Source of the DNA: Candidatus Heimdallarchaeota archaeon
Lineage (GTDB): Archaea; Asgardarchaeota; Heimdallarchaeia; Hodarchaeales; Hodarchaeaceae
NCBI GenBank assembly: GCA_020353515.1
Contig: CP070695.1
Location: 3,710,277 to 3,774,276 of the forward strand
Direction of reading: 5' to 3'
DNA: 64,000 nt
The notes under the pieces were generated by a model. The model ran no database searches. It saw only the letters and a program-made list of their open reading frames with translations, and was not told the DNA's origin. This document shows, in pieces, positions 30,821 to 45,889 of the stretch. The position numbers and the translations under genes are program-made. Every line of letters begins with the position of its first letter. Within the stretch, counting starts at the first letter, position 1.

Positions 30821-31735
30821 ATGTCCAAATACGATCGTCTAATAACACTGAAAGAGGCGGTGATGTTTTCTAATCATGCAGAAGAGAATATTCGACTTCA
30901 AATAGAGCGTGGGTTATTAAAAAAATATGATAAAAATGGAAAACTGCTGAATGATCCTTTAAGAGTGAAAGGCTTCTTTAAACTTTCTGAGATAATGTCA
31001 GTTTATAACATAAAAGATCCAGAAGAAGTTAGGAAAGAATTTTTTGCACGAAAAAAAAGTCCTGATAGTGCGAAAGACATTCTACCTGAAAATGTCATTG
31101 TCCTAAGTTCCTCTGAAATGAATAGAATGGATCACATTGTGGAGGGGAGTATTGATACATGGATTCTCTTTCCAAAGTACTCTTTAACTGAAAAACAAGA
31201 ACCTGTGACTTCCACTGAGGTCAATAAATCACCAGTTCTAAAAGATGTCTTGGAATATCTGAATCATTCTTTAAGAGTACTAAAAACTCAAGGAAATATC
31301 ATTATCCATGCAATTCCAAGTTATGCGCCTTATTTTGGTGTAAAATTAACTAAACTGGGCTTTTTCTTCAAATATTGGATTGTTTTCAATACAGCAATCC
31401 CTCACAAACGAAATTTTAGAAGATTTACACCCGTGGCTAATAGTATCCTTTATTATGTAAGAACTCCCAAAAACTTCAGAATTAATCGAGTTAGAATACC
31501 TTATCGTGTTTGTTCATTTTGTAATGAACCGTTAAAAGACTATGGGGGAAAAAAACACCTTAGACATATTGAGGGAATGGTTCTATCAGATATTTGGCAT
31601 TTTGAAAAAAAGCAATTAACTCCTGAAAATCACCTCCATTCTACAATTCTTAAACGTATAATTGATTTGTCGAGCACATCTTCAACCACCCTCTTACTTG
31701 CTCCTTTTGATGGAGAGAAACCTCATGAAGATTAG
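30821..31735 (+). CDS. N-terminal HTH plus degenerate beta-class DNA methyltransferase domain
   Basis: LITLKEA...IRLQIERGLLKKY HTH; motif IV reads FPKY, motif I reads APFDGEK at the very C-terminus; CSFC..KDYGGKK..LSDIW segment. Confidence 0.65.
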   Translation: MSKYDRLITLKEAVMFSNHAEENIRLQIERGLLKKYDKNGKLLNDPLRVKGFFKLSEIMSVYNIKDPEEVRKEFFARKKSPDSAKDILPENVIVLSSSEMNRMDHIVEGSIDTWILFPKYSLTEKQEPVTSTEVNKSPVLKDVLEYLNHSLRVLKTQGNIIIHAIPSYAPYFGVKLTKLGFFFKYWIVFNTAIPHKRNFRRFTPVANSILYYVRTPKNFRINRVRIPYRVCSFCNEPLKDYGGKKHLRHIEGMVLSDIWHFEKKQLTPENHLHSTILKRIIDLSSTSSTTLLLAPFDGEKPHED

Positions 31736-32522
31736 AAATAAGATAATCTGTGGGGATTGTATTAGTGAAATGATGAACCTCCCCTCTAACATCATAGATT
31801 TAGCATTTGCAGATCCTCCTTATAATTTAAATAAGGATTATGGTGTATATGCAGATTCTAATTCCCCTATTGATTATCTAGAGTGGACAGAGAAATGGTT
31901 ATCCGAAATATTACGATTATTGAAACCAGGAGGGTCATTCTACCTCTTGAATCTCCCAAAATGGGCCATTCATCATGCAGTGTTTCTAGATCAATTCTTA
32001 TATCGTCAGAACACCATTGCTTGGGATGCATTATCAACTCCACGAGGAAAGATAATGCCAGCCCATTATTCTCTACTCTATTACACTAAATCAAGGACAT
32101 ACACCTTTAACCAATTGACCTCCAAACATAATTGGACCCATTGCGCTCGTAGTAAGTGTATTCAGGAGCGAACTACTTCGAATTTGCCTGATAAACCTTT
32201 CTCTGACATTTGGACTAATATTTACAGAGTTAAACATCGAAAAAAGAGACATGTGGATCATCCCACTCAATTACCATTAAATTTCATGGAACGAATAATC
32301 CTAACATCTTCCAATAAGGGGGATCTTATTTTTGATCCATTTCTGGGAGTAGGCACTACTGCTATTGCAGCTAAACTACTAAAACGGGACTACCTTGGAA
32401 TTGAGATTAATCCTGAATATGTTCAAGAATCTCAGAAGAACTTAAAACAGATCTCTTTATTTCAGTCTCGTCTTGAATTCCAAAATCAACAACACCCATT
32501 GAATCTCGATAACTTTCTTTAA
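31725..32522 (+). CDS. Beta-class N4-C/N6-A DNA methyltransferase
   Basis: IICGDC, FADPPYN, HPTQLP, DPFLGVGTT, GIEINPEY; start ATG 31725 overlaps the upstream gene by 11 nt. Confidence 0.9.
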   Translation: MKIRNKIICGDCISEMMNLPSNIIDLAFADPPYNLNKDYGVYADSNSPIDYLEWTEKWLSEILRLLKPGGSFYLLNLPKWAIHHAVFLDQFLYRQNTIAWDALSTPRGKIMPAHYSLLYYTKSRTYTFNQLTSKHNWTHCARSKCIQERTTSNLPDKPFSDIWTNIYRVKHRKKRHVDHPTQLPLNFMERIILTSSNKGDLIFDPFLGVGTTAIAAKLLKRDYLGIEINPEYVQESQKNLKQISLFQSRLEFQNQQHPLNLDNFL

Positions 32523-32526
32523 TAAT

Positions 32527-34473
32527 ATGAGATTTAACGGACTTACTGATATATTAGCGGGAATACTTGTGAAATCCTCAGAAAGAAAAAAAACTTTGGG
32601 TATATATCATACACCTCCATCTCTGGCCCAATTTGTTGTTTGGTCTGGATTTCAACGGCTTTTTCAACAACAATTCCCTGAGCTAGGGTTAAAAGATTTG
32701 AAGCATAATTTTTTTTTGAAATCTCTCAATGAGACTTTAAACCTTTCAACCCGCAAATATATCCACGAATACATTAAAAACCTGAAAATTTTAGATTTAG
32801 GAGTCGGGAATGGCGCTTTTCTAATAGTAGCTGGTAAATTTCTTGAATCTGTATACCCTATAGAAGACGTAAATGATCTGATTGAATTAAAATTAGAATT
32901 ATTACAAAAGAATTTATTTGGAGTAGATAATAATCCTCAAGCGATTTCTTCATGTAGAAAAAATCTTATCACATGGATATTAGGAACCAATGAACCTGAT
33001 CAATATCTAAAGAAAACTAAAGAAATTCAACAATCTTTAGAGTGCAAAATCCGATTAGGAAATGTGTTACTTGGAAACATTACCCCAAATGCTCAAGAAT
33101 ATTCAAAATTTCTAAATGAAAAAGAAGTCTTCCACTGGCATGACGAGTTCCCATCGGTTTTTGATGGGAAAGGTTCAGGATTTGACTTAATCCTATGTAA
33201 TCCTCCCTATGTGACGAAAGATATCTCACCTGAAGATAACCGTCTTTATCGAAGGTTGTATCGAAAACAATTATTTATAAATCGCTTTAATCTCTATCAT
33301 CTTTTCTTTGCTCGTGTTTTTGATCTTTTATCTCCAAATGGAATAACTGTGTTTTTAACTTCAAACTCTGTACTCACAGATAGTTATAGTCAAAAAGTAC
33401 GCGATTTTCTACAAACTAGTTTTTTCATTGAAGATCTTGTAGATTTTGTGAGTCGAACGAAAATTTTTCCAAATGTCTTGCAAGGGACTTGTATCTTAGT
33501 TATACGGAAAAAAAATGGAGTACCCAAACCCGAAACAAGATTAATTAGAACATTTGATATGAAATCATTGATTCAAGGTGCATTTGTTGATGAATACATC
33601 CCGACATCACATCTATTTCACTTAAGGAAGATCATTCCTTCTCCGTTTCAAGAAACATTTCATATTTTGAAGCACTTACAAAAGACTTCTCCTCTACTGA
33701 GAAATATTTTCAGAATACAAAGTGGTGAAATTAGACCGGCTGATAAAAAAATACGACCGTATTATTACAAGGAGCTCCCTGAAAATCACAAGGTTTCTGA
33801 CTTTGATATTGTATTAAATGGAAAAAACGTGTCTCCATACTTAATTAATCTTAGAGAAAACCGTCAAAAGCCTAGGTGGTATAAAAAACCAGATTTCGCT
33901 GACGATTGGATCTTTAGAGAAGATCATGCCTTAATCCCCCGAATTGTTGTACAAAGGATTACTGCAAGAGAACAACTACGACGTATTATTGCTGGAAAGA
34001 TAACCAATCAACATCTTAAAATTAATAAGAGAATCTGGGTTGAAAACAATATCAACTACTTTCTTCTCAAACCTGATTTTCCAACTAATTGGATTTCGTC
34101 AGCTGAAGCATTATTAGGTATTCTTAACTCTCTATTGATTAACTGGTATATGCACCAGATCAATTTAACAGCTGCAGTTCCACCTTCAGACTTAGGTCTT
34201 ATTCCTCTTCCTCAGAAAAAGGCTGAAAACCATGAAAAAATGCAAATATTGCATCAAAAGGTTTTACTCATCCAAAAATTCCTTCAAACATACTCCTCAT
34301 CCTCAGAAATATTAAAACATTTATGTCCCCATTGTACATCTTCTGAGAAAATAAAACAACTTCAGTCAGAAATTGATAGCTTAGTTTTTCAGTTATATGA
34401 AATTCCACAAAATTATCAAAATGAAATAATACATCAATTATCTCAACATCACGAATATTTTGGTCATCATTAA
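32527..34473 (+). CDS. Gamma-class N6-adenine DNA methyltransferase (Eco57I/TaqI-like with TRD), no nuclease domain evident
   Basis: LGIYHTP, LDLGVGNGAFL, LFGVD, FHWHDEFP, FDLILCNPPY, LLGILNSLLINWY, IDSLVFQLY. Confidence 0.88.
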   Translation: MRFNGLTDILAGILVKSSERKKTLGIYHTPPSLAQFVVWSGFQRLFQQQFPELGLKDLKHNFFLKSLNETLNLSTRKYIHEYIKNLKILDLGVGNGAFLIVAGKFLESVYPIEDVNDLIELKLELLQKNLFGVDNNPQAISSCRKNLITWILGTNEPDQYLKKTKEIQQSLECKIRLGNVLLGNITPNAQEYSKFLNEKEVFHWHDEFPSVFDGKGSGFDLILCNPPYVTKDISPEDNRLYRRLYRKQLFINRFNLYHLFFARVFDLLSPNGITVFLTSNSVLTDSYSQKVRDFLQTSFFIEDLVDFVSRTKIFPNVLQGTCILVIRKKNGVPKPETRLIRTFDMKSLIQGAFVDEYIPTSHLFHLRKIIPSPFQETFHILKHLQKTSPLLRNIFRIQSGEIRPADKKIRPYYYKELPENHKVSDFDIVLNGKNVSPYLINLRENRQKPRWYKKPDFADDWIFREDHALIPRIVVQRITAREQLRRIIAGKITNQHLKINKRIWVENNINYFLLKPDFPTNWISSAEALLGILNSLLINWYMHQINLTAAVPPSDLGLIPLPQKKAENHEKMQILHQKVLLIQKFLQTYSSSSEILKHLCPHCTSSEKIKQLQSEIDSLVFQLYEIPQNYQNEIIHQLSQHHEYFGHH

Positions 34474-34491: not shown

Positions 34492-35961
34492 TTATTCTGA
34501 AATAAGACGCTTCCTCTTCCACAGTTTTCTCTTGAGGGGGATGAAGCTAATCGAAAATATAATTAGTAGCACTCCGAACCCCCAAGTCGCTGCACCATGA
34601 GGTATCTCACTAGAAGGATAGATAATGGATTCAAGTAAAATTAATTCTTGCACTGCTAATAGAATTTGTACTTGATCAAGAAGGTATTGCAAATTTTGAT
34701 CTTTGGAAGAAGAATAGAATCCAGAATTTGGAGCTTCTAATTTTTCAATTAACGTTCCAGTAATGTATTGACCATGACGGAGTCGTTCAAACAACACTTT
34801 ACACCGAATGATGACACTCTGATCACTTGCAAGAATTTCATCAGAATCCTTACGATTAGAACTATTATAATATGCGCTATAACTCCAATCCTCGTTGATT
34901 AAATGGTTTCCAATAAATGTATTTATTCGACTTATGAGGAGACTTACTGATGATCCAATATCAAACTCATTATTAAGCTTATTCAACGCAAGAATAAGGT
35001 TTCCTTGATGTTTTGAATAGAAGATTGGAGATACTTCAGATGAATTTATGTCAAAAAAATTAGGAATACCATTAGTTCTGTTTGTTAACTGATCGAGAGT
35101 TTCCACAGTTTGTCTAGCGTAATCAGATAACAGTGAGAGATTGAAAAGATTAGGAAAATTAACAGCATTAGAAAGAAATTCGATAAAAAGAATCTGGTCA
35201 CCCGCTAATCGAAAAGAATTATTGGGAGAATAACCTAGAGTGCTTGTTATCCTATCGATCTTCGGAAGTACTGTTTCCCAAAGGTATAAGCAAGAATTGT
35301 GAAAATTCTCAAGATTAAAAGTGTTTAATGGTATTTCTTCAGGCCTATAAACAAGAAAAGTTCTCAATAGTTTAATATGTAGCTCAGATGCATTGTCACC
35401 AGCATATGAATTATTCCATAGTGGGAATTTCTCGAAAAGAAGCTCTCTTCCAATATTCCACCATTTTGAACTAGCTTTAAATTGGTTGAAGTACCATATT
35501 AGATCTAAAACTTCAGTATCAGAAATCAGACGTGATATGTTAATAGAACCATCAATTATTATTGGATTAATTGTTGAATAAGTTGGAGAGATCATTTCTT
35601 CAATAACTATTTCCAAGTTTCTGGTTACCTGTTCTGGATCAAGTTCTTCTGGGATAGGTGTTGTAGTCTCGATTGATGGTTCAGTAATTTTAGTGTCAGT
35701 AGTTTCAGTAGTAGTATTGTTATCATTGTTATTTGAAAGTTGGTTACTCATGAGAGAAGCAAAAGAAAGAAAAGCAGTAGGAATGATTAGTAGGAAAAAA
35801 ATGCCAATGATTAACCGTGTCCTATTTTTCTTGGGTCGGAAAATAAGAGGTGATTTTCCTTTCTGCATTCGTGAAAGTGATTTTCGACTCTGCCTGATGT
35901 AATCCTCAAGTTCTTGTTCAGAAGGTCCCTCGAAACCTTTTTGACCACGAACCTCGCTCAT
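34492..35961 (-). CDS. Doubly membrane-anchored surface protein with divergent (alpha/alpha)-barrel-like ectodomain
   Basis: Basic cytoplasmic N-terminus, TM, N/T-rich linker, helical repeats (LAGDQ, LASDQ, LLDQ; GFYSS), C-terminal GAATWGF-TM-KRK tail. Confidence 0.6.
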   Translation of the reverse strand: MSEVRGQKGFEGPSEQELEDYIRQSRKSLSRMQKGKSPLIFRPKKNRTRLIIGIFFLLIIPTAFLSFASLMSNQLSNNNDNNTTTETTDTKITEPSIETTTPIPEELDPEQVTRNLEIVIEEMISPTYSTINPIIIDGSINISRLISDTEVLDLIWYFNQFKASSKWWNIGRELLFEKFPLWNNSYAGDNASELHIKLLRTFLVYRPEEIPLNTFNLENFHNSCLYLWETVLPKIDRITSTLGYSPNNSFRLAGDQILFIEFLSNAVNFPNLFNLSLLSDYARQTVETLDQLTNRTNGIPNFFDINSSEVSPIFYSKHQGNLILALNKLNNEFDIGSSVSLLISRINTFIGNHLINEDWSYSAYYNSSNRKDSDEILASDQSVIIRCKVLFERLRHGQYITGTLIEKLEAPNSGFYSSSKDQNLQYLLDQVQILLAVQELILLESIIYPSSEIPHGAATWGFGVLLIIFSISFIPLKRKLWKRKRLISE

Positions 35962-35968
35962 TTCATCT

Positions 35969-36790
35969 TCACTTCATCAAACCACACGACTCTAATAAAT
36001 TATTACAAAATTTCTCAATATCTTGTGAAAAAGAATGCTCTTTTTCTTTTAATACATAAATTCTTTCCGTTACGAAAGGGATCCGCCGAAAGGAGTAAAT
36101 AGGACGTATGGGAATTGCTTTTGGATTATTACTCAAATTCTCCCATATGATTTGAACATTCTCCTCGGCTACTTTCACATCCTCAGGATTCGGTTCAAAC
36201 GCAATATCTTCTTGATGCTCTATTTGATTCATAATTGCAAAGAATTCTACCCCCTCTAGTTTAGAGTAACATTCTGAAATTAACAAATTCAAACCCTTAA
36301 TTTCAGATTTAACTGGACGTGTAACAATCATAATTTTATCCGAAACAACTAAAGCATCAAGTGATCGAAAAGTGATACCAGGCATGCAATCTATGATCAA
36401 AAATTCATAAATCTGTGAATTGCAATAACGAATAAATTCAAATAGTTTAGCGAGAATTCTTCCTTCTCCATGTTGGGTTAGTTTTGACCGAACTTTGGGT
36501 TGTTGGAGAATCTCAATACCAGAAAAAACACAGTCAAAATTCGGTATATCCGTTGAAATTATAACATTTTCTGGTTCAATATCTCCAACTAGAAACTCAG
36601 TTAATGTTTTTTTCCCTGATTCTTCGATTAGGGAATCTGAAGGTAGATAAGATTGGAGTGAGGGAGCCCGAAGATCAAAATCGACCAGACACACCTTTTT
36701 GTCTAGAGTAGCTAATTTTACTGCGGTATTCACTGATAAAAGGGTCTTTCCGACACCTCCCCGATAGCTATGAAAGGTAATTGTCTCCAT
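35969..36790 (-). CDS. ParA/MinD family ATPase
   Basis: Deviant Walker A HSYRGGVGKT, VCLVDFDLRAPSL, FLIIDCMPG, IMNQ. Confidence 0.9.
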   Translation of the reverse strand: METITFHSYRGGVGKTLLSVNTAVKLATLDKKVCLVDFDLRAPSLQSYLPSDSLIEESGKKTLTEFLVGDIEPENVIISTDIPNFDCVFSGIEILQQPKVRSKLTQHGEGRILAKLFEFIRYCNSQIYEFLIIDCMPGITFRSLDALVVSDKIMIVTRPVKSEIKGLNLLISECYSKLEGVEFFAIMNQIEHQEDIAFEPNPEDVKVAEENVQIIWENLSNNPKAIPIRPIYSFRRIPFVTERIYVLKEKEHSFSQDIEKFCNNLLESCGLMK

Positions 36791-37210
36791 TTATTCATCG
36801 ACTCCAAGGGTTTTGTACAAGACTTCAGTAGCTTTACTATCAGGTGTCACTTTCACCCTTTTCTTCAGAATAAAGCCATTATCAGCTAAATAATTCAAGT
36901 ACCGAGATTCCAGTCCTCTACTACGTCCAGTCTCCAAAGCAATATCAGAACTTGTGACCCAATCATCCTTCCTCTGGATTGTTTTATAAGTAGTAAATAA
37001 TCCAGGCCGAGAATCTTGTAAATTTAATATTTCTAAGCTTGAAGGCATTATGGCCCTTTCCACCTCGTACGAGTGTTCAGAGCTCTCTAGCCCTGTTAAT
37101 TTTGCTAAAAAATTATTCATATTTGACAAAGAGCTTTCAATAGACATTAATTGGTGAGAAATTGATTTTATTTCCTTTAAAATGTCAATTAAGAGGTTAT
37201 TATCATTCAT
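36791..37210 (-). CDS. Coiled-coil plus winged-helix DNA-binding protein
   Basis: N-terminal heptads LLIDILKEIKSISHQLMSIESSLSNM; wHTH VTSSDIALETGRSRGLESRYLNYLADNGFILKKR; stop directly abuts the ParA ATG. Confidence 0.8.
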   Translation of the reverse strand: MNDNNLLIDILKEIKSISHQLMSIESSLSNMNNFLAKLTGLESSEHSYEVERAIMPSSLEILNLQDSRPGLFTTYKTIQRKDDWVTSSDIALETGRSRGLESRYLNYLADNGFILKKRVKVTPDSKATEVLYKTLGVDE

Positions 37211-37243
37211 TTTTACCTATTTTTCGGTTAGTTTTAACATCCT

Positions 37244-37277
37244 TATATACGTTGCGCAACATTGCGCAACGTTTATA
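37244..37277. promoter_or_regulatory. 34-bp palindrome with two TTGCGCAA boxes 10 bp apart, flanked by back-to-back TATA boxes
   Basis: TATATACGTTGCGCAA-CA-TTGCGCAACGTTTATA (15/16 arm match); TATATAA on minus at 37243-37249, TTTATATA on plus at 37272-37279. Confidence 0.8.
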
Positions 37278-37363
37278 TACCTAGATGAACTTTGATAATA
37301 AACGATGATATTTGTTGATAAAAGATAAAAATTTTGTTATTTATGTAGTCAGAGGAAGTAAAT

Positions 37364-37531
37364 ATGAAAGAAAGGTTATTCACTAAGTTAAAATCGAAGT
37401 TATGGAGTATTCTAGATGTACTGTCTATCATGGAAAAGCATTTAAGGAAAATTGTGTACTCAGATTACTTAATCGAATGCCCTTTCAACATTGAGAGTAG
37501 AGGGACTCTAGATCGATTCAATTTGAGGTGA
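37364..37531 (+). CDS. Putative 55-aa small protein (not in ORF track)
   Basis: GAGG SD, MKERLFTKLKSKLWSILDVLSIMEKHLRKIVYSDYLIECPFNIESRGTLDRFNLR; its stop lies in the GAGGTGA SD of the next gene. Confidence 0.4.
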   Translation: MKERLFTKLKSKLWSILDVLSIMEKHLRKIVYSDYLIECPFNIESRGTLDRFNLR

Positions 37532-37538
37532 AATAAGA

Positions 37539-38420
37539 ATGAAAATATGGTTGAAAAAACATCATTTGCTCATAATTACTTGTATAGGTATCCAATTTTT
37601 ACTTATACCTGCATTTGCGAATAGTAATAGTTCATTCATAAATAGTTTCTGGAATACTCTAGGTTATGGAGATTATAATGTATTAACGGATTGGTCAGAA
37701 GCAGGTAAGGTTGAATTTTCAATATTGGACTTTGCTGGATTTCTTTATATCAAAAATGATTATGAATCAATATACTTAGGAGTGAGGGTACTAGATGAAA
37801 TAGATAATCTGACTTGGAGAATAAATTTTGATGTGGATGCTGATGGAGGATGGGCTGAGGATGCAAAAGCATTAACTCTAAGAAATCAGATTTTTTCTTA
37901 TGATGATGAGTATTACCTCCAAAATAATCCAGAAGCATTTTCTGACGCTCAACAAGATGATTTCACCGCTTCTATGAGAACTTTCACCTCGGTTAATAGA
38001 GAAAATACAATCTTTGAATTGAAAATACCTCTGCAAACAAATGACCATCTACATGATCTACAAGTCCAGAATCCTGAAACAACAATCATTGGCATATCAA
38101 TGGATGTTGAATTAGACGATTCTGGAATAAATGGGACGTGGAAAGGTAGTTCATATCCCGATTATGCTAATGCTTCTAATTATGTTAATATTTTGTTTGC
38201 TGGGCCTCAAGATCGAAAGATTCCAGTCTTTGAAGAAGAGGAAGAACCACCACCAGAGGAAACAACAGAGCTTGAAGAAGAGACGACGAGTACTGGATAT
38301 GGTTACCCACCTGGTATGGAAAGAGGAGCAGCGACTTCATTTGAAGCTTGGATAGTGCTAATAAGCATTGCTTTTGTCACTATCCTAGGAAGCAAGAAAC
38401 GAAGGAGGGATATCAAGTGA
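37539..38420 (+). CDS. Secreted DOMON/CBM9-like beta-sandwich protein with C-terminal sorting tail
   Basis: Signal peptide; LYIKND..SIYLG, INFDVD.DG....D, FELKIPL; acidic Pro/Thr linker; GAATSF-TM-KKRRR. Confidence 0.6.
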   Translation: MKIWLKKHHLLIITCIGIQFLLIPAFANSNSSFINSFWNTLGYGDYNVLTDWSEAGKVEFSILDFAGFLYIKNDYESIYLGVRVLDEIDNLTWRINFDVDADGGWAEDAKALTLRNQIFSYDDEYYLQNNPEAFSDAQQDDFTASMRTFTSVNRENTIFELKIPLQTNDHLHDLQVQNPETTIIGISMDVELDDSGINGTWKGSSYPDYANASNYVNILFAGPQDRKIPVFEEEEEPPPEETTELEEETTSTGYGYPPGMERGAATSFEAWIVLISIAFVTILGSKKRRRDIK

Positions 38421-40099
38421 TAATCAAGAGAGTCACATCAATTATTGTGATATGTATCTTATTTGGCACATTTCTTCCGATAACATCAGCCAAAAGCTCT
38501 CCAGATGAAGAACATTTTTATGGTGTGATATACAAACAAGCAACTTCATTGAACACTAAATTTCTCCATAGTAAGGGAGCTCTTCAGGATCAACCTAAAT
38601 CTTCAGTTATTACTATATCGATGAACGCACTCACTGCGAGTACATTATTTGCAGAATATGATACTGGTGGATCAACAAATCTCTTGAATATTGCCCATCG
38701 AATTATTAATGCCAGCTCAAAGTATTTTAGGTTGAGTTTCCATAGCGACCGACGTGGTTGGGTTTCTTCCTATGATTTTACGAAAGAAACAGAAAGTTTT
38801 GTAAAAAGTCGAAAGTATACACATGACCAATTCTTGATGCTGGTAGGTCTAGCAAATAGCTATCTAAAATTAGCGGAAAATGACCCGAAAAGGCCTGATT
38901 ACTTGGAGGATTTTAATCAGACATACGAATTCATTGAAGAATACCTTTTAGATCCTAATGGCGGTTGGATTGACTCTCTTTTTACTTTTAATGAGACTCT
39001 ATATACTAAGAATAGATTCAAAATAGTAGAACATATTTGTTGGACCATATGGTCAGTTTTAAATTTACCAGAAAGCTTTAGCTCCCCTCTAACACTCCAA
39101 GAGCTTATCCAAATGGTTGACTTTTTAGATGCAAATGGGACACTTAATGGAGTAATATACAATGTAATAACTCCTGATGGTGAATCAACTGATAATGTGT
39201 TCAAATTGCGTACAAACGCGCTTTACGGAGTAATAAACTTACTTTTATACGAAAAGACTCAAAATAGCAGGTTTCTAAATCGGGGAAAAGTAGTTTACGA
39301 CTTTCTTGTAAACAATCTTTGGGACAGAGGCTTTAAGCTGTTTTTCGATGTGGTTGATGAAAGTGGACTATTACTAGTTCAAGGAAAAAGTTTAATTGGA
39401 AATGCACTAGCGTGCCTGTTATCAAGCCGCTTATGCAGGTATTTCCCTGAGAATTCAACTATAAAAAGCATTTTTGTACTTTCAAATGTTTATATGGAGC
39501 AGTATCTTAAACAAGCAGGAGTGTTCACCTATTATATCTCCTGCAGCACCGATGGTAATCCATTAACGAATCCTTTTACTCTTGAAAGTAATTTAATTCG
39601 ATTATGGCAGCGAATTAATACAATTCACGTAATTAATGGGTCATATTCTTCTTCGGTCTCAATTGGAGAAAAAATACAAATCGATCTAAATCTTGCGAAC
39701 CCAGACAACATTACATATGAAGTGATAGTCACGGGAGAGGAAATAGAACCTTACAATCTAACAACAACAGACTCTAATCCAACTTTATTGGTATCTCTGA
39801 GAAAGAATGCAAAAATTGGAAAAACAGAAATTAAGATCAAAGTTCAAGTATTAAATAAAAATATTGACAAAACTGACTCTCTTCCCCTGGTGATTGGTTC
39901 AGATCGAAAATTACCTCAAGGATTGGTCTACTTAGTGGCACTAGGCATATTAGCTTGCATGGTAATTATAGCACGTTACCCACCCCGAAATCTTGAGGAT
40001 CTTTTTACACGTTTGACTTCGATTGGTATAGCTGAAGAGCAACAAACTGCAGATGAATCCACTTCAGAAGAGGTAGATACTCCTCAAGGTGAGGATTAA
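38417..40099 (+). CDS. Secreted (alpha/alpha)6-barrel (AGE/GH76-like) protein with Ig-like domain, TM and acidic tail
   Basis: Probable GTG start at 38417 (GTGA overlap, GGAGGG SD) giving signal peptide MIIKRVTSIIVICILF; KYTHDQ, LDPNGGW, LLLYEKT.N..FL..G..VYDFL...LWD....FFD repeats. Confidence 0.6.
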   Translation: MIIKRVTSIIVICILFGTFLPITSAKSSPDEEHFYGVIYKQATSLNTKFLHSKGALQDQPKSSVITISMNALTASTLFAEYDTGGSTNLLNIAHRIINASSKYFRLSFHSDRRGWVSSYDFTKETESFVKSRKYTHDQFLMLVGLANSYLKLAENDPKRPDYLEDFNQTYEFIEEYLLDPNGGWIDSLFTFNETLYTKNRFKIVEHICWTIWSVLNLPESFSSPLTLQELIQMVDFLDANGTLNGVIYNVITPDGESTDNVFKLRTNALYGVINLLLYEKTQNSRFLNRGKVVYDFLVNNLWDRGFKLFFDVVDESGLLLVQGKSLIGNALACLLSSRLCRYFPENSTIKSIFVLSNVYMEQYLKQAGVFTYYISCSTDGNPLTNPFTLESNLIRLWQRINTIHVINGSYSSSVSIGEKIQIDLNLANPDNITYEVIVTGEEIEPYNLTTTDSNPTLLVSLRKNAKIGKTEIKIKVQVLNKNIDKTDSLPLVIGSDRKLPQGLVYLVALGILACMVIIARYPPRNLEDLFTRLTSIGIAEEQQTADESTSEEVDTPQGED

Positions 40100-40103
40100 C
40101 TGA

Positions 40104-43100
40104 ATGGTCAGCAAAGAATCTCCCCACAAATGTTCAAGCTGTGGGAATCCATTACTACCTCATGCAAAATTTTGCACTCAATGTGGACACAAAATACAGA
40201 TCGATCCTATTACTCCTTCGGTTCATAAGGAACCTGATGTAGAACAACCACCAGTTAAAGAATCTTTACCAAAAGAAGACATTATATCAGATGTCGAACC
40301 CTCTGTATCAATCTCTCGTGAATTAAAAACTACATTTGATCAGGGATTCGAACTTTTGGCCTCTCTTAGAGAGAATTTATCTAGTGTCATTGTCATCCTT
40401 GGGATTTTCAGTATCCTTGCTGCAGTCGCTTTTACTGTTATTGTGCTCCTACCAAGAGAAATTATTTCAGATATCGAAATACCACCCCTTGAAGGTTTTA
40501 TCTTTGATTTGTTTGTAATTTTCGGACTGATAGGCCTATTAGCAAAAGAAACATTGGTCTATCTTGGATATATCCCAAAGAAAGAGACTCTAGATAGATG
40601 GTTCTCATTTGTATTACTTCTTCTCTTTTGGACGAATATGATCACATTCAGTATTGGATTGGTAATAACTAGCTTGTTTTTTCAGATAGGGCTTGATCTT
40701 CCAGCAGTTTTTGTATTTCTTTCATTAATAATCTTCGTTATTGCCTTCCTTTACTTTAGACGATATCAAGAATCTCTATTTTCTTGTACCTTTATTATAT
40801 CTGTAATGAGTATTGTATATCTAGTACAATGGATAGCTCCTGTTGATCCCATGATATATACTACAGTAGTTTTCTTGGTAGTCGCTGGTGTTGTCATTAT
40901 CTCGTACCAAGCTAAAGATTTAATCATTTTTACTGGTTTATCTGTTTTACTTCCTTTAATGTTTCTTTCACCTTATCTACTAAGCAATTCTATTGTAATA
41001 GCTATAATCCTTCTATTGGTCTTATTTCCATTTGTAGAAATAACAATACAAAAATTAATATTGGATAAGGAGGAATTAAATTGGATTAAACCTCTCGGGG
41101 AGTTATCAAGCACCTTTGGAATGTTTAATGTTAGTTTTTCCGTCTTTTATGGCCATCTACTTCCAGAATTATCAATTTTGATACTAATGATCCCGGTATT
41201 AGGTTCTATTTCCTTGAAAGTTTTCTACTCGGATTTTCGGAGATTACCTCTAAGAGATGGAGCTACTATAATCTTTTTAGTATTCACATTAGTCTTTTTC
41301 GACTTTATACTTGAAAATTTATTGATATTATTTGGAGTCGCTGTACTTTTAGTTATATACTCTACATTTACTGTATTTGAATATGTAAATGTCCGACAAG
41401 AAAAGCTTCTACGTTATGTTGAACTCTTACTAATAGCATCTTTAGTTGTTGTCTCAATGACAAGACTACTTTTTATCTGGAAAATTTGCTTAGTACTCAT
41501 TCCTCTTTTCTCGTTATTAGTTTTAATTCAACAAAAGAAACCCATAAACTATCAAACTGCTCGCGGTTTTGTATTCGGATCGGAAGTCCTAATCTTATTG
41601 GCTTTCATACAATCTCCAGCTTTTGATTTACTCATCATTCCAATATTTTCCTTCATTGCCATAATAGGAATTATTATTTTATTTATTTTGAACAAAGAAG
41701 AAAGCAGAATTAGATATTCATTAGACCTGACGATTTTCTCATTGATTTTTGAAGCAACCTTACTTGTGATGATGCTTTGGACCGAAAGTAGTGTTGAAAT
41801 GCTTTATCCTGTAGTCATTCTTATTTTTCTAACAATTATGATTTCAATAACACAAATTCGACAAAGAATTACACCAAATTTCCTCTGGATTAACTCCAGT
41901 TTTATAATTTGTTTTGGATTAATGAGTTATTGGAACGAATTTGAAGTTATTTGGACGGTTTTTACAGTTTTTCTGACCGTCCTACCAATGTTATTTGAAG
42001 GATTTCTAATTAAAAACAAGGAAAACAATTCAATAACAGAAAGTACCATTAAAAGCAGAAATCTAAATATTTCAATATCTGCAATTGGTTTGGCCTTAAT
42101 AGTTTTTTTTGAAGAATTAGATCCAATAAGCCATAGTGTTATTTTCATAACAATTCCTATTATTTGGGTGGTTTTGTATTTTCTCGATAAACAATATTTT
42201 AATTCCTTGTCTGAGCTATTAATGATTATATCGCCAGGATTAATCTTTTCTTTTGAAATGTTACTAAAACAAACCATATTTACTCCAATTACAGACATTA
42301 AATATCTTTATCTGACATTACTGGCATTTTCTATTCCTGTTATATCATTACAAGTGAATCATTTCCTGAAAAGAAAAACGAAGGCACCTATTAATCCAAT
42401 TATCATTGGTACAACCCTATCTTCATTGATTATAATGATTGCTTTGTGGACTTACACACTCCATTCTACTGAATACTTATTCTTAATTTCTGGATTATTA
42501 TTGGCATTAATTGTTTCTACATTCCTAGTCAAATGGCAATATGAATCTATTCTTCTACTTCTAGTATCTTTCTTTCCCTCTACAATATATGCAGGTTTTT
42601 TCGATCTTCCTTCATCACTTCTTTTATATCTAATTCCAATCTTTCCTCTCCTATTAAACTTCGTAATGGGTCTCAAATATTTAAAGACTGACCTTTCAGT
42701 ATATTCACATGAATTTATTATGCTAGCTTATTTCGGAATATTAATCCTCTTTAGTCCAATAAAGCTGATTGAATACACGACATTCTTATTCGCTCTATTC
42801 CAGACCAGTTGGCTTTTTCTCGGATTGTTAAAACGAGTACTCAATCAAAAAATTCTAGTTCTAACGAATTTAGTAAACTCAGCTTTTGTACTTGTTCTGA
42901 TGGCCTTTATTGAACCTTTGATAACTGAATCTTTCCTCATAGAGCTTGGAATCAGATTTCCTCTTAGAACAACATTAATAGGTCTGATTTTAATTGTTGT
43001 CACCATAGTTATGCTCATTCACCTAGTAAGCTGGCAAATCAGAGAGCTAGAAACCGATCTTTCATATTTGATGGCTTTAATCCTGATTTTTAATAGCTCT

Positions 43101-43589
43101 GCATTAATTTTGTCAGCAATTCAGTTGACTCTTCGAACAACAGACATCTCTTTGACCTCTATTCTCTTTGGTATATTAATACTCTTCACAATTTTACTAA
43201 TTTCTTCAATAATATCATATATAGGCATTAAAAGACTTAAAAACGAGATTTCACTTGCCTGTATATATACTACAACGGCATGGGTGGTTTTATCATCATT
43301 TTTCTTCACAAATATTGAACTAGTTTTTCTCTGGCTGTTCTTTGGTCCTTTAATGGTGATTGTATTTCTAGCGAAACAGGAGAGAACTATTATTCTAATG
43401 GCTATTATATTCTATTTTATAGCGGGATTGAGATTAATAGAATATACTCTCGAGTTTTTAGTATCGGGAATAGCAGATTGGGTAACAATTCTTGGATTGA
43501 TAGTCTTTGGAATAGAATTAGTTTCATTAGGAATATATTCATCCATATCTGGGAAAAATAAAAAAACCACTTTGGTTCATGAAGTTTGA
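40104..43589 (+). CDS. Zinc-ribbon domain plus very large polytopic membrane protein (1161 aa)
   Basis: CSSCG...AKFCTQCG zinc ribbon, Pro/acidic linker, then ~1070 aa of almost continuous TM hairpins. Confidence 0.8.
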   Translation: MVSKESPHKCSSCGNPLLPHAKFCTQCGHKIQIDPITPSVHKEPDVEQPPVKESLPKEDIISDVEPSVSISRELKTTFDQGFELLASLRENLSSVIVILGIFSILAAVAFTVIVLLPREIISDIEIPPLEGFIFDLFVIFGLIGLLAKETLVYLGYIPKKETLDRWFSFVLLLLFWTNMITFSIGLVITSLFFQIGLDLPAVFVFLSLIIFVIAFLYFRRYQESLFSCTFIISVMSIVYLVQWIAPVDPMIYTTVVFLVVAGVVIISYQAKDLIIFTGLSVLLPLMFLSPYLLSNSIVIAIILLLVLFPFVEITIQKLILDKEELNWIKPLGELSSTFGMFNVSFSVFYGHLLPELSILILMIPVLGSISLKVFYSDFRRLPLRDGATIIFLVFTLVFFDFILENLLILFGVAVLLVIYSTFTVFEYVNVRQEKLLRYVELLLIASLVVVSMTRLLFIWKICLVLIPLFSLLVLIQQKKPINYQTARGFVFGSEVLILLAFIQSPAFDLLIIPIFSFIAIIGIIILFILNKEESRIRYSLDLTIFSLIFEATLLVMMLWTESSVEMLYPVVILIFLTIMISITQIRQRITPNFLWINSSFIICFGLMSYWNEFEVIWTVFTVFLTVLPMLFEGFLIKNKENNSITESTIKSRNLNISISAIGLALIVFFEELDPISHSVIFITIPIIWVVLYFLDKQYFNSLSELLMIISPGLIFSFEMLLKQTIFTPITDIKYLYLTLLAFSIPVISLQVNHFLKRKTKAPINPIIIGTTLSSLIIMIALWTYTLHSTEYLFLISGLLLALIVSTFLVKWQYESILLLLVSFFPSTIYAGFFDLPSSLLLYLIPIFPLLLNFVMGLKYLKTDLSVYSHEFIMLAYFGILILFSPIKLIEYTTFLFALFQTSWLFLGLLKRVLNQKILVLTNLVNSAFVLVLMAFIEPLITESFLIELGIRFPLRTTLIGLILIVVTIVMLIHLVSWQIRELETDLSYLMALILIFNSSALILSAIQLTLRTTDISLTSILFGILILFTILLISSIISYIGIKRLKNEISLACIYTTTAWVVLSSFFFTNIELVFLWLFFGPLMVIVFLAKQERTIILMAIIFYFIAGLRLIEYTLEFLVSGIADWVTILGLIVFGIELVSLGIYSSISGKNKKTTLVHEV

Positions 43590-43679: not shown

Positions 43680-44711
43680 ATGAACACGGATCAACGACGT
43701 TTATATCTGAATAATTGGGCAATTCTTACTACAGAAAACGAAGTTAAATGGCATTTTGGGGATATCGATAAAGAAAAACTTGATCAAACAGTTGATTTTG
43801 TGAAATCGGTCTCTCGTCTTGGAGCTGAACTTTGGGGTCAAGGGATCGGAGTTGTGAGGTTAAGATATCCACGGCCACATCCTAGTCAGGCACGAGAAAT
43901 TATGATTGTGAACTTATCCAGTAAAATGAAAAGTTTTAACATTGTAATTTCTGACCCTTTAGTCACCACGAGATTGATGAGCCGAATAGAAGTAGAAACT
44001 GCTCCATGGGATGAAATGAGAAGTATTTTGGCTGGTGGTGCATCTGTGATTTATTCCCAGTTCTATTCCCAAGAAGGTGCCTTAGATAGTAGTGTTGTAG
44101 ATGCACTGTTCCAAGAAGCAGTAAATGCAGTAACCTATAATGAATATGTTACAGTCGGAAACGGTGAGTGTTCTTTCTCTGCATTGAGTTTTGAAGAATT
44201 GTTGTTTTTTCATGCCCTACTGAGGGAGTTATTCGAATCTTATTATTCAACAATGATACCTAGCAATCCATGGGGAGTTATTCATTCAACTAATGGTGTC
44301 CCTGTTCATTTACAATACAATCCCCCTTTAGATGCTGCTCTGATCAGTGCATTCTCAGCTGTTATTGTAAATTACTGTCAACTGCTTTTTGAAGCTTATC
44401 CTGCCCGTCTTGTCTTCGGAGCTCATTCCATGCAAGGAATGGACTTTATTTCGACAGAGGAAAATGTATTCGTCGTTAATAATCCAAGGAAACTATTAGG
44501 ATTACAAAAATTTCAAAGAGAGTGGAAAAAAACCCAAAAAATCACTCCCGAGGTAATCCATGATCTCGCACCAGCCATGAAGGAGTATTTTATAGATCTT
44601 TCAATACAAGGCCAACGTGAAAAGCTTAAAAACTTGGAATTTCACCGTGTGATTAATTATTTCACACGAATGGGTATTAGACGGGCAAGGGCATATAGAT
44701 TACCTAAATAA
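43680..44711 (+). CDS. Uncharacterised protein with two longin-like domains, paralog A
   Basis: Second domain GVIHSTNGVPVHLQY...DAALISAFSAVIVNYCQLLF is longin/roadblock-like; close paralog adjacent. Confidence 0.6.
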   Translation: MNTDQRRLYLNNWAILTTENEVKWHFGDIDKEKLDQTVDFVKSVSRLGAELWGQGIGVVRLRYPRPHPSQAREIMIVNLSSKMKSFNIVISDPLVTTRLMSRIEVETAPWDEMRSILAGGASVIYSQFYSQEGALDSSVVDALFQEAVNAVTYNEYVTVGNGECSFSALSFEELLFFHALLRELFESYYSTMIPSNPWGVIHSTNGVPVHLQYNPPLDAALISAFSAVIVNYCQLLFEAYPARLVFGAHSMQGMDFISTEENVFVVNNPRKLLGLQKFQREWKKTQKITPEVIHDLAPAMKEYFIDLSIQGQREKLKNLEFHRVINYFTRMGIRRARAYRLPK

Positions 44712-44854
44712 AACGAAAAAACCTTCTAGTTCTTAGAACTCAATACAATCAGAATCCTAGTTTTATTTTCTTGTAACTCTATATACAGAACCATATTACA
44801 AAGCTTTTTAGATACTTCTTTGAGGCATTTTAGATTGAGAACATAAATAATGAA

Positions 44855-45889
44855 TTGGAACCGTATACATTGAATGAAACTTCGCATCGATTATACCTCA
44901 ATAATTGGGCTATTCTGAGTTCTGAGAACGAGGTTAAATGGCATTTTGGAGATATTGATGACGAAAGGTTAATTCAAACTCTCTACTTTGTCAAGGCACT
45001 CGGTAAACTTGGAGCTGAAATCCTAGGACAAGTTATTGGTGTAATTCGACTTCGCTACCCACGATCTCATCCAACACAAGCCAGAGAAATTATGGTTGTT
45101 TCTCTAATGGATAAATATAATATTGTAATTTCTGATCCATTAGTGACAACTAGATTGATGAGTAAAATAGAATCTGACTCAGATCCCATGCCCACATTTG
45201 ATGATATGCGCAGTATTTTAGCAGGTGGAGCGAGTGTTATTTATTCACAATTCTATTCTCAAGAAGAAGTCCTAGATAGGCAGATTGTCGATTCCCTTTT
45301 TCAAGAAGCTGTCAGCGCTGTAACTTACAAGGATGATGTATATGTCGGAAATGGCACATGTTCATTCTCAGCATTGAGCCTAGAAGAACTCCTTTTTTTC
45401 CATGCCCTTCTTAAAGAAGTTTTTGAATCATATTATTCAGTAATGGTTCCTGGCCAACCTTGGGGAATCATCAGTGCATCTTCAGGTGCAGATCTATATC
45501 TAACATATGATCCTCCTGTTGATGCGGCTTTAATAAGCTCTTTTTCCTCTGTTATCACTAATTACACGCGTTTTCTTTTTGAAGCGTTTCCTGCCAGATT
45601 AATCTTTGGTATAGCTCAGCAATCTGCAATGGACTTCATTGCTACAGATAAAAACCTCTTTGTAATTAATAATCCTAGAAAGCTGTTCCGTTTGCAAAAA
45701 TTTCAACGAAAGTGGAGAAAAGTTCCCTCTACCGTTGCGCATGATCTTGCACCTGCTATGAAGGAATATTTTACTGAACTTATCCTTCAGGAGCGCCAAG
45801 AGAGTATCAAAAAACTGAAATTTCATCAGATTATTAACCTAATGACTCATATGGGAATTCATCGCGCTCGTAAATACAAAATACCGTAA
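44855..45889 (+). CDS. Uncharacterised protein with two longin-like domains, paralog B
   Basis: Colinear with 43680-44711 (RLYLNNWAIL, ENEVKWHFGDID, NIVISDPLVTTRLMS, MRSILAGGASVIYSQFYSQE, HDLAPAMKEYF). Confidence 0.6.
   Translation: MEPYTLNETSHRLYLNNWAILSSENEVKWHFGDIDDERLIQTLYFVKALGKLGAEILGQVIGVIRLRYPRSHPTQAREIMVVSLMDKYNIVISDPLVTTRLMSKIESDSDPMPTFDDMRSILAGGASVIYSQFYSQEEVLDRQIVDSLFQEAVSAVTYKDDVYVGNGTCSFSALSLEELLFFHALLKEVFESYYSVMVPGQPWGIISASSGADLYLTYDPPVDAALISSFSSVITNYTRFLFEAFPARLIFGIAQQSAMDFIATDKNLFVINNPRKLFRLQKFQRKWRKVPSTVAHDLAPAMKEYFTELILQERQESIKKLKFHQIINLMTHMGIHRARKYKIP

Follow-up and report, generated by a model that had tools for sequence, protein, structure and literature searches.

The window analyzed in this study is a 64,000-nt stretch of the closed 4.94-Mb genome of a Candidatus Heimdallarchaeota archaeon (G000 below), and all positions are given in the coordinates of this stretch. 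Between positions 34492 and 43589, two groups of genes are oriented away from each other. The left arm encodes a winged helix-turn-helix (wHTH) protein (A), a ParA/MinD-class ATPase (B) and a bitopic membrane protein (C), and the right arm a secreted protein (E), a type-I membrane protein (F) and a polytopic protein (G), preceded by a small open reading frame (ORF), D. An earlier note on this DNA had described the locus as one co-regulated system, in which the ATPase positions a membrane complex. The analysis gives a slight preference to a different view, namely that two operons of separate ancestry stand back to back, an autoregulated ParA/MinD-C module and a separate surface operon that probably belongs to the same small regulon. 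A single physical apparatus is unproven. The ORFs of both arms and the gaps between them (0 and 7 bp on the left, 7, -4 and 4 bp on the right) were recovered at the same coordinates as in the earlier note. The features of the locus are the following:

34492-35961, minus strand: C, bitopic membrane protein, 489 amino acids (aa), gap of 7 bp to B
35969-36790, minus strand: B, ParA/MinD-class ATPase, 273 aa, gap of 0 bp to A
36791-37210, minus strand: A, wHTH protein, 139 aa, from the ORF list
37244-37277, no strand assigned: palindromic double box with two TATA-like boxes, intergenic, between A and D
37286-37318, no strand assigned: second conserved intergenic block, invariant columns in alignment A7
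37364-37531, plus strand: D, 55-aa ORF from the ORF list, doubtful as a gene
37539-38420, plus strand: E, secreted protein, 293 aa, gap of 7 bp after D
38417-40099, plus strand: F, type-I membrane protein, 560 aa, overlapping E by 4 bases
40104-43589, plus strand: G, Zn-ribbon polytopic protein, 1161 aa, gap of 4 bp after F

Gene order in related genomes and the shared promoter box

For the analysis of synteny, 61 related genomes were searched; the genus is represented by G000 and 21 others. C was identified in 14 of the 61 genomes, which are G000, 12 of the 21 other genus members and, as one weak match, a member of another family. F was found in 12 of the 61, and G strongly in 8 genomes besides G000. 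The order of genes within each arm is kept. A, B and C are adjacent and in the same order in all 11 genus loci that were fetched, and E, F and G, or the portion of them that lies within the contig, are adjacent in 8 of 8 fetched right-arm loci as well as in 2 linked loci. A locus from another family (L028) carries E and F at 26-28% identity; the third gene there encodes a polytopic protein of 1241 aa, in which the Zn ribbon is C-terminal. Since each arm is conserved as a trio of its own over a different taxonomic range, A-B-C in three families of the class and E-F-G within the order, the comparison of gene order identifies the two arms as separately inherited modules.

Both arms are present in 10 genomes, and they are adjacent in only four of these, G000 and its closest relatives G008, G011 and G014 (C identity 63-72%). 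In five others (G012, G010, G002, G020 and G018) the two arms are found on separate contigs and face kilobases of other genes. In G021 a three-gene DNA methyltransferase cassette adjoins A, and E is located at the end of another short contig. NCBI locus tags place F and C four or seven genes apart in related metagenome-assembled genomes (MAGs), with the distance of seven on one 44.8-kb contig, and the methylase cassette alone may separate the arms in genomes of the G021 type. Synteny had been proposed in the earlier note as a check of its single system. With the arms unlinked in 5 of the 10 genomes that have both and methylases next to A in 1, the outcome largely speaks against that system. 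For the co-expression check proposed alongside, the sequencing runs listed were DNA from sediment metagenomes, with no RNA run among them.

These data bear directly on the reading that the locus encodes one cell-surface apparatus, in which the ATPase would position C together with E, F and G via the C tail, the F tail and the Zn ribbon of G. It agrees with the adjacent arms and the bidirectional promoter in four genomes, with a promoter box that is shared even where the arms are unlinked, and with the distribution of F, which was never found without C (10 of the 13 genus genomes with C, 0 of the 9 lacking it). The F tail and the cytoplasmic Zn ribbon of G could also take a partner. However, apart from the five genomes with arms on different contigs, A-B-C is present without any F match in three genomes that are 89-94% complete (G013, G004 and G019), the related trio in the sister family f3 is paired with an unrelated VWA protein, and the co-occurrence of F and C may only mirror a subclade. 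We regard a single apparatus as improbable.

The intergenic region between the arms contains a palindrome at 37244-37277 (TATATACGTTGCGCAA CA TTGCGCAACGTTTATA), which is composed of two 8-bp boxes with starts 10 bp apart. The box, TTGCGCAA, is itself an 8-bp palindrome, and each copy is followed by an outward TATA-like box, on both strands, with box and TATA reading toward A (34-67 bp before its ATG) on one side and toward D/E on the other. The palindrome is invariant in 4 of 4 linked genomes, whereas outside it the spacer toward E shows little conservation. The second block at 37286-37318 (CTTTGAT.ATA..CGATGATATTTGTTGA, with ATCAAC-type repeats) forms a run of invariant columns, and ATCAACAAA-like strings were observed upstream of the box at the E promoters of unlinked genomes. 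Upstream of A, the tandem box was found in 15 of the 20 stretches read (G000 and 19 loci); within the genus g1 it is present in G000 and in 9 of 12 loci. Its position at A is independent of the divergent neighbor. At the same place, f3 genomes have a different repeated AT-rich palindrome.

The combination of box and TATA is rare in the genomes. TGCGCAA[CT]GT[AT]TAT occurs in G000 only at 37244-37277, once per strand, and a generic form of the pattern has 13 sites. In G020, G002 and G018, where the arms are unlinked, each genome has exactly two copies of GCGCAAYGTTTAT, one ahead of A and one ahead of E, both on the coding strand, and the site at the E promoter of G002 is a perfect 12-bp palindrome (CATTGCGCAATG). 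In G013 and G004, in which no F was found, GCGCAAYGTTTAT occurs once, at A only. For the 13-nt string of box and TATA about 0.26 chance matches per genome are expected from a composition estimate. Because box and TATA stand at both promoters even in unlinked genomes, the operons may be co-regulated, and E-F-G probably belongs to the same small regulon as A-B-C. The simplest reading of the box is that of a shared operator for a dimeric regulator, and we infer that A, with the tandem site at its own promoter, is the regulator that binds it. A further copy of box and TATA (GATCAACGATGCGCAACGTTTATAAA) was noticed in G012 (contig C265; L068 2397-2915) upstream of a gene for a 132-aa secreted or membrane-anchored protein, which may be another regulon member. 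As a candidate for a dispersed repeat of the centromere type, TTGCGCAA was rejected; G000 has 27 copies, when about 53 are expected, and only a single tandem pair.

An accidental juxtaposition, in which the operons have no functional or regulatory tie and the motif is either a feature of promoters or left over from the joining recombination, would fit the variable neighborhood of the trio. The divergent neighbor of A in the genus can be E-F-G, a VWA gene, a ConA-like gene, a gene for a cytoplasmic 299-aa protein or methylases, and the side of the trio on which the methylase cassette is found differs between genomes. Yet a string expected about 0.26 times per genome stands at both promoters and on the correct strand in three unlinked genomes, and a relic of recombination would not persist in genomes that never joined the arms. 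Mere accident is in our view an unlikely explanation.

Two further features flank the arms in G000:

30821-34473: three-gene DNA methyltransferase cassette, beyond C
43680-44711 and 44855-45889: two tandem paralogs of 343 and 344 aa without a Pfam family, after G

The methylase cassette lies beyond C in G000 and G008 and on the other side, next to A, in G021 (L014 4909-8557). In G012 a geranylgeranyl-reductase-like gene directly abuts C. From these differences in position it can be concluded that the cassette moves around the locus. A single copy of the paralog at 43680-45889 follows G in G008, G012 and G021, with 65-74% identity to both copies of G000, and the pair in G000 is therefore a recent tandem duplication.

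The ATPase module and the tail of its predicted membrane partner

B exceeds the cut-offs of three Pfam families (AAA_31 with 81.7 bits, cut-off 27; ParA with 39.8, cut-off 27.1; CbiA with 31.5, cut-off 25.4). A profile of 23 relatives compared to the PDB identified archaeal MinD (1ion, 5e-17) and Soj (6iub, 2e-15) as the nearest solved structures and also matched chains of CapA1/CapB1 at about 1e-8 to 1e-9. B stays below the cut-offs of the NCBIfam MinD models, with 47.1 bits against 201.75 for minD_arch (TIGR01969) and 41.9 against 212.9 for minD_bact (TIGR01968). It also stays below that of the KGGVGR-variant AAA ATPase model NF047398 (67.8 bits against 90), the motif here being RGGVGK. The Walker A motif is HSYRGGVGKT, in which the P-loop lysine is present and the signature lysine is replaced by arginine. 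This exchange was found in 11 of 11 genus sequences and in one f3 sequence; the remaining f2 and f3 sequences have lysine. The aspartates of Walker A' and B (D37, D39 and D134, the last being that of Walker B) are invariant in the 23 sequences, a DFDLRAPS motif is present, and the C-terminus appears acidic to neutral by eye in the alignment. Motifs and profile scores together place B among the ParA/MinD-class P-loop proteins.

B is a single-copy gene in G000, with paralogs at 25-27% identity. One second pair of similar composition is located at G000:C1:130553-137360, where a DNA-binding-like protein of 181 aa stands with a ParA-like ATPase of 249 aa (HSYKGGTGKT). It is flanked by genes for secreted proteins and for two large surface proteins, one of them with a Heimdall-CTERM-like tail. 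A DNA-binding protein paired with a ParA-type ATPase near surface proteins may be a recurring theme in G000.

In A, a variable linker connects an N-terminal helix to a C-terminal wHTH domain (TGRSRGLESRYLN; alignment A6), whose winged helix contains the invariant string RxxxLESRYL. In all loci examined A lies immediately upstream of B. Compared to the PDB, the sole lead was an Lrs14-like regulator with an E-value of 0.076. A is homologous to a small protein encoded upstream of distant ParA-like genes from metagenomes (hhalign 97.7%, E 2e-12).

In C, a basic cytoplasmic N-tail (residues 1-46) and a transmembrane (TM) helix (47-73) are followed by a stalk rich in Thr and Asn, a barrel at about 109-447 and, at the C-terminal end, a TM helix with a basic tail. 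No match to Pfam or NCBIfam was found for C at E<=0.1, and its profile gave nothing below an E-value of 0.5 against PDB sequences. In a structural model from a 12-row alignment (pLDDT 72), a cytoplasmic helix precedes the first TM helix, a disordered stalk leads from there to a helical barrel, and the chain ends with the C-terminal TM helix. With Foldseek this model matched barrels of GH76, AGE, cellobiose 2-epimerase, YihS and GH105 proteins (E about 4e-6, target TM-score up to 0.68, probability 1.00), which supports a predicted (alpha/alpha)6 barrel as the ectodomain of C. The best-conserved part of C across the class is the N-tail (alignments A1 and A5), in which Y21 is invariant. In distant homologues the ectodomain has diverged past BLAST detection and the N-tail is retained (..YLxxSxKNxxxxKxGKxP..).

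The earlier note had suggested modeling the ATPase with this basic tail. For the prediction, a B dimer with 2 ATP and residues 1-50 of C, each given as an alignment, were modeled in three runs together with three controls. The interface score was 0.65 (runs 0.71, 0.65 and 0.58), the best of the three controls reached 0.00, and the suggested contact is thus supported. A score of 0.65 is reached by 116 of 157 solved complexes and by 2 of 215 mismatched pairs. The contact agreement between runs was at least 66% and the pLDDT of the partner at least 61. On B the predicted interface covers residues 40-41, 104-121, 136-149 and 173-179, including the invariant L40, R41, L113, R142 and D145, and on C residues 9-43, including Y21. 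From these models the ATPase dimer B is predicted to bind the cytoplasmic N-tail of C.

Two known classes of systems resemble this arrangement. B shares the fold of the deviant Walker A class and the A' and B motifs with the ParA/MinD positioning ATPases, such as MinD-MinE, ParA-ParB, PpfA/ParC with chemoreceptor arrays and archaeal MinD4 (PMC11407121), and as in these systems the partner is predicted to bind via a conserved N-terminal peptide. It differs in that the partner C is bitopic and carries an extracellular barrel, in the arginine in place of the signature lysine within the genus, and in scores far below the MinD cut-offs. In the split bacterial tyrosine (BY) kinases CapA/CapB of Firmicutes (2ved, 3bfv, 4jlv), a MinD/ParA-class protein is controlled by the cytoplasmic juxtamembrane peptide of a bitopic or 2-TM membrane partner with an outside domain. 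The C-terminal tyrosine cluster that is a feature of BY-kinases was found in none of the 23 B sequences, however, and the peptide is N-terminal instead of C-terminal and the outside domain is a barrel instead of a polysaccharide co-polymerase fold.

The surface operon E-F-G and the sorting tails

The signal peptide of F is followed by an (alpha/alpha)6 barrel and, at 404-495, by a beta-sandwich; a TM helix (498-523) then leads to a cytoplasmic tail with the conserved sequence RYPP[KR]NLEE (alignment A2). No Pfam or NCBIfam family was found at E<=0.1. The F profile matched GH76 (6u4z, 4.8e-7) and cellobiose 2-epimerase (5zig, 5.4e-7) in the PDB over about 50 residues, and the model of F (pLDDT 64) gave the same GH76/AGE-type fold set as C with Foldseek (E 1.7e-5, probability 1.00). 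An (alpha/alpha)6 barrel is therefore supported for F as well, at the level of a structural model. Barrel-like ectodomains in both arms, as claimed before, are thus borne out by the models of C and F. A comparison of C with F by hhalign detected no relation between them (probability 0.3%), so that their barrels are not recent paralogs. For F 31 relatives were found, and all 21 with a source name are annotated as hypothetical proteins. The named MAGs among the sources belong to Hodarchaeota/Hodarchaeales, Heimdallarchaeota, Hermodarchaeota or Promethearchaeota.

C and F share the (alpha/alpha)6 fold with the GH76/AGE enzymes (AGE, cellobiose 2-epimerase and the YihS superfamily), to which their barrels show target TM-scores of 0.6-0.68 at a sequence identity of 8-13%. 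Unlike these enzymes, they are membrane-anchored and without a Pfam match. No conserved GH76/AGE catalytic set, either an Asp-Asp pair or a set of His, was found among the invariant columns of the C and F alignments (A1, A2 and A5), and the ectodomains of C and F would therefore more likely bind glycans than cut them.

E is composed of a signal peptide, an ectodomain of roughly 200 aa, an acidic Pro/Thr linker and a tail of GAA..FE, a TM helix and RRRR (alignment A3). The earlier description of E as DOMON-like is only a lead. It comes from neighbors by Atlas feature score with EB_dh (0.89, on 16% of the cluster members) or CBM9 (0.87), which count as leads, not as matches. The E profile found nothing below 0.11 in the PDB, and a Pfam search with nine E relatives (E<=10) gave no shared family.

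Upstream of E, D is present as a frame, as the earlier note had it, but its status as a gene is doubtful. An intact counterpart was found in only one of three close relatives (G014), the frame is shortened in G008 and G011, and tblastn with D gave no matches in the related loci. The stop codon of D lies inside the Shine-Dalgarno-like string GAGGTGA, 8 nt before the ATG of E (37520-37541). Judging from the sequence, the leader from which E is likely translated in G000 is long (about 235 nt), whereas in unlinked relatives about 60-80 nt lie between the TATA box and E.

Sorting tails of a GAAT type had been assigned to both arms. The E tail is a borderline case, with 19.8 bits for Loki-CTERM (NF033507, cut-off 19.9) and 16.6 for Heimdall-CTERM (NF045529, cut-off 24), whereas the C tail matches none of the CTERM models tested. 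Four of seven tails tested from G000 pass the Heimdall-CTERM cut-off. With Heimdall-CTERM, Loki-CTERM and PGF-CTERM (TIGR04126), the tails of this locus share a C-terminal pattern in which a small-residue motif precedes a TM helix and a basic cluster, and we read the GAAT tails as a divergent version of the Heimdall/Loki-CTERM sorting domains already known. The differences are the E tail just below the cut-offs, the C tail without a match and the exosortase/archaeosortase family PF09721, which was not found in G000. The enzyme that processes the tails, if there is one, is therefore of another family or too diverged. Literature searches for Heimdall-CTERM/Loki-CTERM returned nothing.

G follows F in every locus examined. 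It begins with a Zn ribbon (PF13240, Zn_Ribbon_1, 1.6e-6) and an acidic linker (residues 1-83), after which hydropathy analysis of the protein, with 34 segments in total, indicates about 30 TM helices with very short loops between them, in line with the earlier description of a 1161-aa polytopic protein. The Atlas leads for G are uncharacterised bacterial Zn-ribbon polytopic proteins with DZR, DUF7575, DUF2157 or DUF2339 domains.

History and interpretation of the two operons

Of 301 genomes of the phylum, 34 have relatives of B (E<=1e-25), and these 34 belong without exception to the families f1, f2 and f3. The trio is complete in 16 of 18 distant B loci; one of the others is truncated by the contig end and one has no trio. 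The distant trio encodes a wHTH protein of 116-144 aa, an ATPase of roughly 255 aa (HSYKGGTGKT) and a bitopic protein of 450-480 aa. A gene for a secreted protein lies divergent from A in 15 of 15 f3 loci with a flank, and in 6 of 6 long f3 loci (L060 7036-12277 and L061-L065) this partner is a VWA protein of roughly 705 aa with an integrin-beta-like domain (5e-11). The VWA gene is followed by genes for a membrane protein of 435 aa that ends in a RING finger (1.2e-6) and an Lrp/AsnC-domain protein and by an Orc1/Cdc6 gene. G012 and one metagenome contig of the genus (51% identity) also have the gene for this VWA protein divergent from A, and a tblastn search for it in G000 gave no match at E<=1e-4. 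Other partners divergent from A in the genus are a ConA-like surface protein (G010) and the cytoplasmic 299-aa protein (5 genomes). The occurrence of the VWA partner in f3, in G012 and on the genus metagenome contig makes this divergent pairing look ancestral, and E-F-G would have replaced the VWA gene in the subclade of G000.

A scan of metagenomes for B-type genes yielded 565 stretches that passed tblastn. In 13 of the 16 long loci that were viewed, an A-like ORF abuts the ATPase gene; 12 of these 13 have no C-like gene, and the thirteenth is a trio of the f3 type. Pairs of this kind are frequent in JGI metagenome contigs; those at L078-L130 consist of a wHTH protein of 125-163 aa (..KKERxGRKAYFxVD) and an ATPase of about 260 aa (DLDFRAPS), often with a second wHTH gene upstream. 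Scanned with the F alignment, metagenomes gave no match.

Such pairs could also be read as DNA partition or tethering devices, in which A would be a centromere-binding protein, the box the centromere, B the motor and C the membrane anchor. The pair of a small wHTH protein and a ParA-like ATPase is widespread, 12 of the 13 metagenome loci with such a pair have no C-like gene, the location of the site ahead of the operon is reminiscent of SegAB and of type-Ib systems of plasmids, and the f3 trio lies about 4 kb from the Orc1/Cdc6 gene in 6 of 6 long loci. On the other hand, G000 has only two boxes, both in one promoter, and relatives have the same box and TATA at the E promoter. A large extracellular barrel is unnecessary for DNA tethering, and the best Orc1/Cdc6 matches in G000 are located elsewhere, the nearest about 71 kb away. 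The GC skew of the whole G000 genome showed no origin signal. A role in partition has a low probability in our judgement.

AspA-ParB-ParA of pNOB8 is an archaeal ParA-based segregation set. In SegAB (PMC8682754 and PMC12139799) and HpaAB (PMC13722703), a ParA-type ATPase likewise stands beside a small site-specific DNA-binding protein, with a palindromic or tandem site immediately upstream of the operon. The locus described here differs from sets of this type in that the wHTH gene comes first, the third gene encodes a surface membrane protein and not a cytoplasmic adaptor, and the same site is also found at the promoter of an unrelated surface operon.

In the favored reading of two operons within one regulon, A-B-C would be an autoregulated ParA/MinD-type module, in which dimeric A binds the tandem TTGCGCAA boxes at its own promoter and adjusts the level of both operons. 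B would hold or release the conserved N-tail of C through its ATP cycle and thereby govern where or when C sits in the membrane, and the ectodomain of C would be a barrel of a glycosidase fold that more likely binds than cuts glycan. E-F-G would form a separate envelope complex, in which the polytopic G serves as the membrane platform for the secreted, beta-rich E and for F, a second barrel protein that also has an Ig-like domain. Recombination at the shared box may have joined both operons in this lineage. From the single co-regulated system of the earlier note, this reading retains the shared box, the predicted contact between the ATPase and the C tail and the divergent pairing of the trio with some surface gene in most lineages, but not the linkage of the arms, which are adjacent in only 4 of the 10 genomes with both.

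Several points weigh against this interpretation. G021 has no exact match to the box, and in G010 the A promoter has diverged and a variant stands before E. G020, G002 and G018 are kin, so that their three box pairs count as one conserved feature and are not independent. The box could be used by a regulator other than A; it also overlaps the position of the TFB-recognition element, and the likeness of the two promoters, although real, could partly reflect promoter strength, against which speaks the rarity of the generic pattern with its 13 sites. Complexes of ParA/MinD proteins with peptides have already been solved, and the interface between B and the C tail possibly passed in part through likeness to them; its score was obtained with custom alignments and ATP ligands, which fall outside the calibration of the interface tool. 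The models of C and F are of only moderate confidence (pLDDT 72 and 64), and neither ectodomain keeps the GH76/AGE catalytic residues.

Each component class of the locus is known. The combination of a wHTH protein, an ATPase and a bitopic barrel protein whose conserved tail is predicted to bind the ATPase, with operator-linked, changeable surface operons, was not found in the literature searched, and no such module was found for Heimdallarchaeia or Hodarchaeales together with ParA/MinD among the papers listed first, in searches that were loose and thus not proof of absence.

Among the positioning devices described from prokaryotes, the ParA/MinD ATPases are the most prominent, although very few of their cargos are known in archaea and none is known in Asgard archaea. 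The A-B-C trio offers a predicted interface between the ATPase and a tail, with named contact residues, and an 8-bp operator candidate, all of which are testable with purified proteins and need no culture of the organism. It is also an example of two operons that are tied by a genome-unique promoter box and not by position, and the box may mediate the shuffling of operons. The surface proteins C, F and G have no match among the families described so far and are restricted to this lineage.

A more far-reaching idea, which we consider rather doubtful, is an undescribed control from the inside to the outside of the cell in Hodarchaeales and their sister family. In this case the ATPase would grip the tail of C as a glycan-binding barrel protein and, together with the wHTH protein, set the expression and placement of changeable surface modules, i.e., an integrin-like VWA protein with a RING membrane protein in one lineage and E-F-G in the lineage of G000. 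If true, this would be a prokaryotic forerunner, in the archaea most closely related to eukaryotes, of the control of adhesion proteins through their tails.

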